From Escherichia coli (GTDB lineage Bacteria > Pseudomonadota > Gammaproteobacteria > Enterobacterales > Enterobacteriaceae): DNA of 64,000 nt. This document shows positions 8,154-41,917 of the stretch, one piece after another. The notes under the pieces are model-generated. The model saw only the letters and a program-made list of their open reading frames with translations. It made no database searches and had not been told where the DNA came from. The position numbers and the translations under genes are program-made. The stretch's first letter is position 1; each line of letters begins with the position of its first letter. The stretch lies in the NCBI RefSeq assembly GCF_048403405.1, contig NZ_CP183129.1, one strand, 5' to 3'.

Positions 8154-8270
8154 CTTCGTGCTCTCCATTTAGCTGCCGGTTGTGGTACGACCAGTCCGAT
8201 CGCACCATTTTTCAGCGTAGTCAAGGCAGTGAGATTCGCCAGTCAAAACGTGCGCTTTTTTTGTGCTCTT

Positions 8271-17169: not shown

Positions 17170-17201
17170 AATCAGGCACAAGAAATTGTGCCTGATTTTT
17201 T
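17170..17201 (+). terminator. Rho-independent terminator of proQ-prc
   Basis: Hairpin ATCAGGCACAA-gaaa-TTGTGCCTGAT followed by TTTTT. Confidence 0.7.
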
Positions 17202-18253: not shown

Positions 18254-18286
18254 AAAAAGCGCGTCCTGAACGACGCGCTTTTTTTA
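18254..18286. terminator. Bidirectional terminator between htpX and yebQ
   Basis: AAAAAGCGCGTC-ctgaa-GACGCGCTTTTTTT palindrome with A/T runs on both sides. Confidence 0.7.
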
Positions 18287-38665: not shown

Positions 38666-39361
38666 ATGCGAATTCTGGCTATCGATACCGCGACAGAGGC
38701 CTGCTCTGTCGCCCTGTGGAACGACGGTACGGTCAACGCTCATTTTGAGCTTTGCCCTCGTGAACATACTCAACGAATCTTACCGATGGTGCAGGATATC
38801 CTGACCACCAGCGGAACTTCCCTGACTGATATTAACGCTCTGGCTTACGGGCGCGGCCCCGGTAGCTTTACTGGCGTGCGCATTGGTATTGGCATCGCGC
38901 AAGGGCTGGCGCTTGGCGCGGAATTACCGATGATTGGCGTCTCCACGCTAATGACGATGGCGCAAGGGGCGTGGCGCAAAAACGGCGCAACACGCGTGCT
39001 GGCAGCCATTGACGCGCGAATGGGCGAAGTTTACTGGGCCGAATATCAGCGTGATGAAAACGGTATCTGGCACGGTGAAGAAACCGAAGCCGTACTCAAA
39101 CCCGAACTCGTTCATGAACGAATGCAACAGCTTTCCGGCGAATGGGTGACGGTAGGGACGGGCTGGCAAGCCTGGCCGGATCTCGGTAAAGAGAGCGGGC
39201 TGGTTTTGCGCGATGGCGAAGTGTTACTCCCCGCTGCAGGAGATATGCTGCCGATTGTTTGTCAGATGTTTGCCGAGGGTAAAACGGTGGCGGTAGAACA
39301 TGCCGAACCGGTTTATTTACGTAACAACGTCGCATGGAAGAAACTTCCGGGCAAAGAATGA
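38666..39361 (+). CDS. tsaB: tRNA t6A37 threonylcarbamoyladenosine biosynthesis protein TsaB (YeaZ)
   Basis: 231-aa [20 protein letters not shown]..., inactive Kae1/TsaD paralogue. Confidence 0.95.
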
Positions 39362-39400
39362 ATCTTAAGAGTATGCCCTGAGAAAAAAAGGAGTCGCATC

Positions 39401-39982
39401 ATGGCGGTTCAAAAGAACGTTATCAAAGGCATACTGGCAGGTACGTTTGCGCTAATGCTGAGCGGTTGTGTCACTGTGCCGGACGCCATTAAAGGCAGCA
39501 GTCCCACGCCGCAACAAGATTTAGTTCGGGTGATGAGTGCGCCGCAGCTGTACGTTGGTCAGGAGGCACGCTTTGGTGGCAAAGTGGTTGCGGTACAAAA
39601 CCAGCAAGGGAAAACCCGCCTGGAAATTGCTACCGTACCGCTGGACAGCGGAGCCAGACCAACTTTGGGGGAACCTTCACGCGGGCGCATTTATGCCGAT
39701 GTGAACGGTTTTCTGGACCCGGTAGATTTCCGTGGACAACTGGTTACGGTAGTTGGGCCAATCACCGGTGCGGTTGACGGCAAAATCGGCAACACGCCCT
39801 ATAAATTTATGGTGATGCAGGTAACGGGTTACAAACGTTGGCATTTAACCCAGCAGGTGATTATGCCGCCTCAGCCGATTGATCCATGGTTTTATGGCGG
39901 TCGTGGCTGGCCCTATGGCTACGGTGGATGGGGCTGGTATAATCCCGGCCCCGCGAGAGTACAAACTGTTGTAACTGAATAA
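39401..39982 (+). CDS. yeaY: Slp-family outer membrane lipoprotein YeaY
   Basis: 193-aa ORF with lipoprotein signal (LSGC). Confidence 0.85.
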
Positions 39983-40002
39983 TTGCTTGTTTTTAAAGAA
40001 AA

Positions 40003-40029
40003 AGAAACAGCGGCTGGTCCGCTGTTTCT
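40003..40029. promoter_or_regulatory. Perfect 11-bp inverted repeat (AGAAACAGCGG-ctggtc-CCGCTGTTTCT) containing a FadR-operator-like CTGGTCCGCTGTTT; also a candidate yeaY terminator stem
   Basis: Palindrome read directly; similarity to the FadR consensus ANCTGGTCNGAYNTGTT; position upstream of fadD. Confidence 0.45.
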
Positions 40030-40097
40030 GCATTCTTACGGTAAAGATAAAAATAAATAGTGACGCGCTTCGCAACCTTTTCGTTGGGTAATTATCA

Positions 40098-40114
40098 AGC
40101 TGGTATGATGAGTT
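40098..40114 (+). promoter_or_regulatory. FadR operator-like site AGCTGGTATGATGAGTT in the fadD promoter
   Basis: Match to the FadR consensus about 75 bp upstream of the fadD TTG start; fadD repression by FadR is established. Confidence 0.5.
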
Positions 40115-40186
40115 AATATTATGTTAACGGCATGTATATCATTTGGGGTTGCGATGACGACGAACACGCATTTTAGAGGTGAAGAA

Positions 40187-41871
40187 TTGAAGAAGGTTTG
40201 GCTTAACCGTTATCCCGCGGACGTTCCGACGGAGATCAACCCTGACCGTTATCAATCTCTGGTAGATATGTTTGAGCAGTCGGTCGCGCGCTATGCCGAT
40301 CAACCCGCGTTTGTGAATATGGGGGAGGTGATGACCTTCCGCAAACTGGAAGAACGCAGTCGCGCGTTTGCCGCTTATTTGCAACAAGGGTTGGGACTGA
40401 AGAAAGGCGATCGCGTTGCGTTGATGATGCCTAATTTATTGCAATATCCGGTGGCGCTGTTTGGCATTTTGCGTGCCGGGATGATCGTTGTAAACGTTAA
40501 CCCGTTGTATACCCCGCGTGAGCTTGAGCATCAGCTTAACGATAGCGGCGCATCGGCGATTGTTATCGTGTCTAACTTTGCCCACACTCTGGAAAAAGTG
40601 GTTGATAAAACCGCCGTTCAGCACGTAATTCTGACCCGTATGGGCGATCAGCTATCTACGGCAAAAGGCACGGTAGTCAATTTCGTTGTTAAATACATCA
40701 AGCGTCTGGTGCCGAAATACCATCTGCCAGATGCCATTTCATTTCGTAGCGCCCTGCACAACGGCTACCGGATGCAGTACGTCAAACCCGAACTGGTGCC
40801 GGAAGATTTAGCTTTCCTGCAATACACCGGCGGTACCACTGGTGTGGCGAAAGGCGCGATGCTGACTCACCGCAATATGCTGGCGAACCTGGAACAGGTT
40901 AACGCGACCTATGGTCCGCTGTTGCATCCGGGCAAAGAGCTGGTGGTGACGGCGCTGCCGCTGTATCACATTTTTGCCCTGACCATTAACTGCCTGCTGT
41001 TTATCGAACTGGGGGGCAGAACCTGCTTATCACTAATCCGCGCGATATTCCTGGGTTGGTAAAAGAGTTAGCGAAATATCCGTTTACCGCTATCACTGGC
41101 GTTAACACCTTGTTCAATGCGTTGCTGAACAATAAAGAGTTCCAGCAGCTGGATTTCTCCAGTCTGCATCTTTCCGCAGGCGGAGGGATGCCTGTTCAGC
41201 AAGTGGTGGCAGAACGTTGGGTGAAACTGACTGGACAGTATCTGCTGGAAGGTTATGGCCTGACCGAGTGTGCGCCGCTGGTCAGCGTTAACCCGTATGA
41301 TATTGATTATCATAGCGGTAGCATCGGTTTGCCGGTGCCATCGACGGAAGCCAAACTGGTGGATGACGACGACAACGAAGTACCACCGGGTCAACCGGGT
41401 GAGCTTTGTGTCAAAGGGCCGCAGGTGATGCTGGGTTACTGGCAGCGTCCGGATGCTACCGATGAAATCATCAAAAATGGCTGGTTACACACCGGCGACA
41501 TCGCGGTGATGGATGAAGAAGGATTCCTGCGTATTGTCGATCGCAAAAAAGACATGATTCTGGTTTCCGGTTTTAACGTCTATCCCAACGAGATTGAAGA
41601 TGTCGTCATGCAGCATCCTGGCGTACAGGAAGTCGCGGCTGTTGGCGTACCTTCCGGCTCCAGTGGTGAAGCGGTGAAAATCTTCGTAGTGAAAAAAGAT
41701 CCATCGCTTACCGAAGAGTCACTGGTGACTTTTTGCCGCCGTCAGCTCACGGGCTACAAAGTACCGAAGTTGGTGGAGTTTCGTGATGAGTTACCGAAAT
41801 CTAACGTCGGAAAAATTTTGCGACGAGAATTACGTGACGAAGCGCGCGGCAAAGTGGACAATAAAGCCTGA
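40187..41871 (+). pseudogene. fadD: Long-chain acyl-CoA synthetase FadD, interrupted by a -1 frameshift in a G6 run at 41011-41016 (premature stop at 41060-41062)
   Basis: Two ORFs (40121-41062 and 41056-41871) in different frames each encode a contiguous part of FadD (...[13 protein letters not shown] | [22 protein letters not shown]...); restoring one G rejoins them. TTG start at 40187. Confidence 0.85.
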
Positions 41872-41917
41872 GCGTTAAGTCAGTCGTCAGACGCCGGTTA
41901 ATCCGGCGTTTTTTTTG
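41830..41917 (+). ncRNA. sroD: sRNA SroD, derived from the fadD 3' end; boundaries approximate
   Basis: Established sRNA annotated at the fadD 3' end / fadD-rnd intergenic region in K-12, ending at the fadD terminator; placement from recalled annotation. Confidence 0.35.

Follow-up and report, generated by a model that had tools for sequence, protein, structure and literature searches.

The window analysed here, a 64,000-nt stretch of an Escherichia coli contig (NZ_CP183129.1), carries the gene order yoaA, tsaB, yeaY, fadD, rnd, with all five of these genes on the plus strand. Between the end of yeaY at 39982 and the TTG start codon of fadD at 40187 lies a spacer of 204 bp, base-for-base the same as that of K-12 MG1655. 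This is the classical yeaY–fadD intergenic region of E. coli, and its arrangement is widely shared: in a comparative set of 80 Enterobacterales fadD loci, yeaY stands directly before fadD in all 79 loci with enough upstream DNA, and the spacer is usually 186–234 bp long. An original prediction had placed two FadR-operator-like sites upstream of fadD, one of them embedded in a perfect palindrome that could equally act as the yeaY terminator stem, and its coordinates for both sites and for the palindrome are all exact. The features of the locus are as follows.

39340 to 39367, plus strand: candidate sigma-E-type promoter for yeaY (GAAACTT-N16-TCTTA), 34 nt upstream of the yeaY ATG, from a pattern scan
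39401 to 39982, plus strand: yeaY coding sequence (Slp-family lipoprotein), from the list of open reading frames and the RefSeq annotation of identical DNA
40003 to 40029, plus strand: perfect 11-bp palindrome with a 5-nt loop, as RNA the putative intrinsic-terminator hairpin of yeaY
40012 to 40028, no strand assigned: upstream, weak FadR operator GGCTGGTCCGCTGTTTC (site 2 of the 2012 paper), from a published probe
40025 to 40037, plus strand: putative T-rich terminator tail TTTCTGCATTCTT, stronger in most relatives than in E. coli
40059 to 40074, no strand assigned: CRP-cAMP site core AGTGA-N6-TCGCA, centred at -60.5, from a published probe
40098 to 40114, no strand assigned: proximal, strong FadR operator AGCTGGTATGATGAGTT, from a published probe, matrix score and conservation
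40127, plus strand: fadD transcription start, from the literature, 60 bp before the start codon
40187 to 41871, plus strand: fadD coding region, with its TTG start at 40187, frameshifted in the window

Both predicted sites lie inside published K-12 FadR gel-shift probes, and a comparison with the published fadD sites showed that the probes match both predicted positions exactly. The site-1 probe GTAATTATCAAGCTGGTATGATGAGTTAATATTATG has a single exact match in the window, at 40088–40123, and the site-2 probe GAAACAGCGGCTGGTCCGCTGTTTCTGCATTCT likewise has one, at 40004–40036. The sequences and positions are those of the fadD FadR operators of Feng and Cronan 2012 (PMC3460868), with no difference in the window. 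In that study FadR bound site 1 as well as the fadL sites, whereas site 2 bound it more than 10-fold more weakly; both fadD sites shifted with FadR and released it with oleoyl-CoA, and the gel-shift results agreed with earlier DNase I footprints. Both FadR sites of the fadD promoter are thus long known, and the finding is correct but not new.

The two operators go by several names. The original DNase I footprinting, by Black et al. 1992, is said to have named them OD1 and OD2. More recent numbering of the fadD sites is reversed between papers: site 1 is the proximal one in PMC3460868 (2012), while FadR1 is the upstream one in PMC4259882 (2014). Both papers assign high affinity to the promoter-proximal probe, and with the opposite numbering a reuse of primers could mix up the strong and the weak site.

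We scored the window with a symmetrised FadR matrix built from five non-fadD operators (fadL1, fadL2, fadBA, fabA and fabB) of the published probe table, and counted mismatches against the 17-bp dyad AACTGGTCNGACCWGTT, the consensus quoted in a 2022 review. The proximal site reached 11.7 bits, rank 4 of 63,984 window positions, with 4 mismatches to AACTGGTCNGACCWGTT, and 77 of the 80 Enterobacterales loci have a site of at least 7 bits at -100 to -79 relative to the start codon. The palindrome site reached 0.86 bits, rank 251 of 63,984, and has 7 mismatches, a result at the level of chance. It matches the consensus in the left half-site CTGGTC only, the other half being poor, and the hexamer CTGGTC alone occurs 49 times in the window. 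The resemblance to the FadR consensus that had been proposed for both sites therefore holds for the proximal site and fails for the one in the palindrome. Because of this low score, only experiments identify a FadR site in the palindrome; to take a low matrix score as refutation is wrong here, as it would discard a site that has been footprinted experimentally. Disagreement between a matrix score and a footprint can go either way.

Using the published transcription start, the proximal operator falls at -29 to -13, between the -35 and -10 regions, and this overlap with the core promoter is compatible with repression. The upstream operator falls at -115 to -99, outside the core promoter; the distance between the two sites is 68 bp (PMC3460868), or 86 bp from centre to centre. 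The 2022 review remarks that the position of the FadR site at about -100 is surprising; for repression it is a poor one. The palindrome that holds this site reads AGAAACAGCGG / CTGGT / CCGCTGTTTCT, with CTGGTCCGCTGTTT located at 40014–40027, and the half-site CTGGTC of GGCTGGTCCGCTGTTTC is made up of the five loop bases and the base that opens the 3' arm. Either strand of the 33-mer used as the site-2 probe folds back on itself into a DNA hairpin of about -11.7 kcal/mol, which may qualify the weak site-2 shift on technical grounds.

The palindrome begins 21 nt past the yeaY TAA, and the sequence bears out that it is perfect over 11 bp, of which 6 are GC pairs. As RNA, the hairpin has a folding energy of -16.1 kcal/mol (z = -5.1), and including the flanks brings this to -21.6 kcal/mol. 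Counting perfect hairpins with a stem of at least 11 bp and a loop of 3–8 nt, we found 3 distinct ones in the 64-kb window, where first-order Markov randomisations lead one to expect 0.17. The other two, at 17170–17197 (AATCAGGCACAA...TTGTGCCTGATT) and 18254–18283 (AAAAAGCGCGTC...GACGCGCTTTTT), look terminator-like.

Comparison across species points to a role of the hairpin on the yeaY transcript. A stable hairpin lies 3' of the yeaY stop codon in all 66 of the scanned spacers of at most 260 nt, and in Yersinia, Serratia, Pantoea, Erwinia, Brenneria and Pectobacterium the same position is occupied by a hairpin of unrelated sequence with a classical T-run. In 52 Enterobacteriaceae spacers, where the hairpin is homologous and aligns gap-free, 98.3% of cells form standard pairs, and both-sided changes are seen at 4 of the 11 stem pairs (22 cells). 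This covariation score was reached by none of 500 shuffles, and pairing fell to only 39–69% when the partners were slid as a control.

A chance palindrome without function would leave such covariation, and the conservation of position across the order, as well as the rarity of perfect hairpins in randomised windows, without a cause, and we give that reading virtually no credence. All that counts for it is the lack of direct 3'-end data, a point that also counts against the terminator reading: the tables of Adams 2021, TERMITe and SMRT-Cappable-seq hold no RNA 3' end for yeaY, and the sole mapped end near the locus in Adams 2021 is the fadD/sroD end. An Rfam scan of the spacer returned no family, with only sroD downstream.

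The tail of the hairpin bears on the strand that is read. After the GC core, the plus-strand tail has 6 T in 10 positions in the window; in 51 other species the mean is 7, with a range of 5–8, and 36 of these 51 relatives have at least 7. The E. coli tail is broken up (TTTCTGCATT) and the plus strand fails a scan rule of 5 T in 8, which counts against a terminator. The minus-strand orientation does pass such a simple terminator rule, and is the only one that does, its tail TTTCTTTTTC being the better T-run in E. coli. The palindrome might work mainly on the minus strand, as a terminator of antisense transcripts from the fadD promoter region, or else as a DNA cruciform or as the site of another protein, e.g. 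ArcA, which according to the literature controls the fadD promoter from a site that shares 1 bp with the palindrome FadR site. However, the minus strand carries no gene or Rfam family there; the compensatory G-U intermediates fit an RNA from the plus strand; and the minus-strand tail is poorly kept across species, at 2–9 T in 10, whereas the plus-strand tail has 5–8 T in 10 in every species. A minus-strand role is in our view hardly likely. Since the plus-strand tail is kept and the minus-strand tail is variable, the selected feature would be the plus-strand RNA hairpin, that is, the yeaY terminator.

The hairpin resembles intrinsic (Rho-independent) terminators, which have an A-tract upstream and a U-tract downstream, in its GC-rich stem and 5-nt loop, in a candidate T-rich tail, in its position 21 nt past a stop codon, and in an A-rich stretch 5' of the stem with the potential to pair to the tail. 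It differs from them in that the E. coli yeaY tail is interrupted, and in that the next gene is co-directional rather than convergent. From these alignments, we infer that the conserved, selected role of the palindrome is that of yeaY intrinsic terminator. The proposed terminator function is therefore supported, by covariation and by positional conservation; of the two roles suggested for the palindrome, the comparative data favour termination as the chief one under selection and put FadR binding second.

The same alignment separates the hairpin from the FadR half-site within it. Column conservation is lower in the loop (0.64) than in the arms (0.92–0.94), and just 20–29% of species retain the G at the loop centre. 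The loop has 19 alleles across the 52 spacers. CTGGT is the commonest single allele, although it is found in only 9 of the 52, and 14 further loops are one base away from it; there may thus be weak selection for the CTGGT half-site. Citrobacter, for instance, has CTCGT. As the conserved 3' arm contains the other, right half of the FadR site, the conservation of that half is not assignable to one role. Within E. coli, 4,392 genomes (81%) have CTGGT and 1,024 of 5,426 (19%) have CCGGT with an intact stem, ST131 being an example of a carrier. A second FadR site of at least 7 bits exists in only 3 of the 80 loci, and in none of them within the hairpin. The FadR half-site in the loop is apparently not under selection. 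The statement in PMC3460868 that Citrobacter, Klebsiella and Enterobacter largely keep both fadD sites needs qualifying for the upstream site, for which the conserved part is, on this alignment, the stem.

Three variants were noted beside these alleles. Enterobacter sp. 10-1 has a different second FadR-like site, TTCTGGTCTGATAAGAA (10.1 bits), just downstream of the hairpin and 154 nt ahead of the fadD start, with a weaker counterpart in Raoultella; this suggests a turnover of auxiliary sites, not conservation of the E. coli one. E. coli C21-2 (298–515 of its locus sequence) has a change from AAAAAG to ATGCAG at the equivalent of window 40000–40005, just 5' of the stem, which makes the perfect palindrome 14 bp long in place of 11 (TGCAGAAACAGCGG / CCGCTGTTTCTGCA) and looks like a template-switch (quasipalindrome) mutation. 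In E. coli PEC301 (1440–2414 of its locus sequence), an ISApl1 element separates the hairpin from the CRP site, its insertion point being at about window 40054; the upstream FadR site is thereby about 1 kb from the fadD promoter, a natural separation-of-sites mutant.

Transcription from yeaY may nevertheless pass the hairpin. In a microarray study (PMC2731931), sigma-E overproduction raised yeaY 2.8-fold, fadD 2.2-fold and rnd 1.5-fold, and the three genes were described as one putative operon. Upstream of yeaY, 39340–39367 fits a sigma-E-type promoter consensus and is a candidate promoter. A sigma-E promoter directly before fadD was also considered and set aside, the scan giving only a poor candidate with 3 mismatches at 40072–40099. 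The co-induction of yeaY and fadD by sigma-E points to read-through across the hairpin, and the yeaY terminator is probably leaky in E. coli. The published fadD-lacZ fusion spans 39587–40178; because it has both FadR sites and lacks the yeaY promoter, it could not test an effect of FadR on read-through.

Such read-through gives some room to a true dual function, in which the FadR site of the palindrome would itself be selected, as an auxiliary operator that adds to repression or as a roadblock to polymerases coming from yeaY. FadR does bind the site and acyl-CoA does release it; fadD and fadL are the sole fad promoters with two FadR sites (PMC3460868); the sigma-E induction of fadD together with yeaY, and the sigma-E-like promoter before yeaY, imply polymerases crossing the site; and CTGGT is the plurality loop across genera as well as that of most E. 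coli genomes. Set against this are the weakness of the binding, the merely 2- to 3-fold derepression of fadD that the literature reports for a fadR deletion, and the loss of the half-site in 43 of the 52 spacers and its change in 19% of E. coli genomes, where the vicinity offers no replacement site. In addition, the 2022 review states that the upstream site lacks an in vivo test. We consider a selected dual function unlikely. DNA looping between the two sites can be set aside as one form of it. A loop over 86 bp is unsupported, because FadR is a dimer and the second site is not conserved; FadR is not known to assemble into tetramers or other higher-order forms.

Transcription factors are known to act as roadblocks within transcribed DNA, as with LacI at operators and CodY and CcpA in Bacillus. 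The fadD locus is similar in that the upstream repressor site lies in the path of polymerases from the yeaY promoter, and different in that the affinity of FadR for the palindrome is low, so the likeness is a lead only. A leaky terminator might be combined with a fatty-acid-responsive roadblock, in which FadR at -115 to -99 would, without acyl-CoA, hinder sigma-E-dependent yeaY polymerases from entering fadD. If so, release of FadR by acyl-CoA would let envelope-stress transcription add to fadD expression, and the roadblock would account for the oddly placed second operator. This specific form we judge very unlikely.

We favour a reading in which the proximal site is the main operator, the palindrome is the yeaY terminator and FadR binding at the palindrome is weak and incidental, and we put its probability at roughly 0.8. 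A FadR dimer at 40098–40114 occludes the core promoter and so blocks RNA polymerase, long-chain acyl-CoA frees this operator from FadR, and CRP-cAMP at -60.5 activates fadD, all as described in the literature. The hairpin at 40003–40029 would terminate most yeaY transcripts, as the comparative data suggest. The K-12 loop and 3' arm read GGCTGGTCCGCTGTTTC, on this view by chance, with one good and one poor half-site, and FadR binding of this DNA, weak in vitro according to the literature, would presumably have little consequence in vivo. Weak and patchily distributed, FadR binding at the palindrome is then probably a minor, evolutionarily unstable by-product of the hairpin and no second selected function.

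The modest addition made here is that the hairpin with which the puzzling upstream operator coincides, a probable terminator, is conserved in structure and has a drifting loop. Because the loop half-site drifts both between species and within E. coli, the sequence comparison suggests that the second operator is for the most part a chance product of the terminator sequence, and this offers an explanation for the curiously placed FadR site flagged by the 2022 review. It also serves as a caution that an in vitro footprint is not always a regulatory element. The dual operators of fadL provide a comparison: fadL likewise has two FadR sites and modest (2- to 2.5-fold) FadR control, but its sites are 8 bp apart and equal in affinity, whereas those of fadD are 68 bp apart and unequal, with the distal one inside the terminator hairpin.

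The published CRP gel-shift probe matches window 40041–40088, the CRP site of fadD is described as Class I (PMC3460868), and a conserved block at 40058–40082 in the Enterobacteriaceae spacers covers it. Nearly invariant across the 52 Enterobacteriaceae spacers are also 40115–40128 and 40146–40186, in the fadD -10 region and 5' UTR; these blocks may reflect the promoter core or a post-transcriptional control of fadD. The hit of a simple promoter scan, TTAATA-18-TATCAT at 40113–40142, was set aside, as it conflicts with the published transcription start.

Further along, fadD itself is frameshifted in the window, having a G6 run at 41011–41016 where the closest genomes have G7, which divides the open reading frame into 40121–41062 and 41056–41871. 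G6 is present in only 4 of 5,426 complete E. coli genomes, one of which RefSeq marks as a frameshifted pseudogene; either a sequencing error in the homopolymer or a genuine loss of fadD could lie behind it. The sroD sRNA (Rfam RF00370, 115 bits), at 41830–41915, overlaps the 3' end of fadD.

The matrix scan also returned a FadR-like site elsewhere in the window, TTGTGGTACGACCAGTC at 8180–8196 on the minus strand, in the rsmF–yebV spacer and 27–43 bp upstream of the yebV ATG (8153). At 12.96 bits it is the second-best match to the FadR matrix in the window, a score that is somewhat circular in that the matrix includes the fadBA operator, with which TTGTGGTACGACCAGTC has the 12-nt core TGGTACGACCAG in common. 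None of the papers searched links FadR with yebV, and the match makes yebV a possible, as yet unreported, FadR target.
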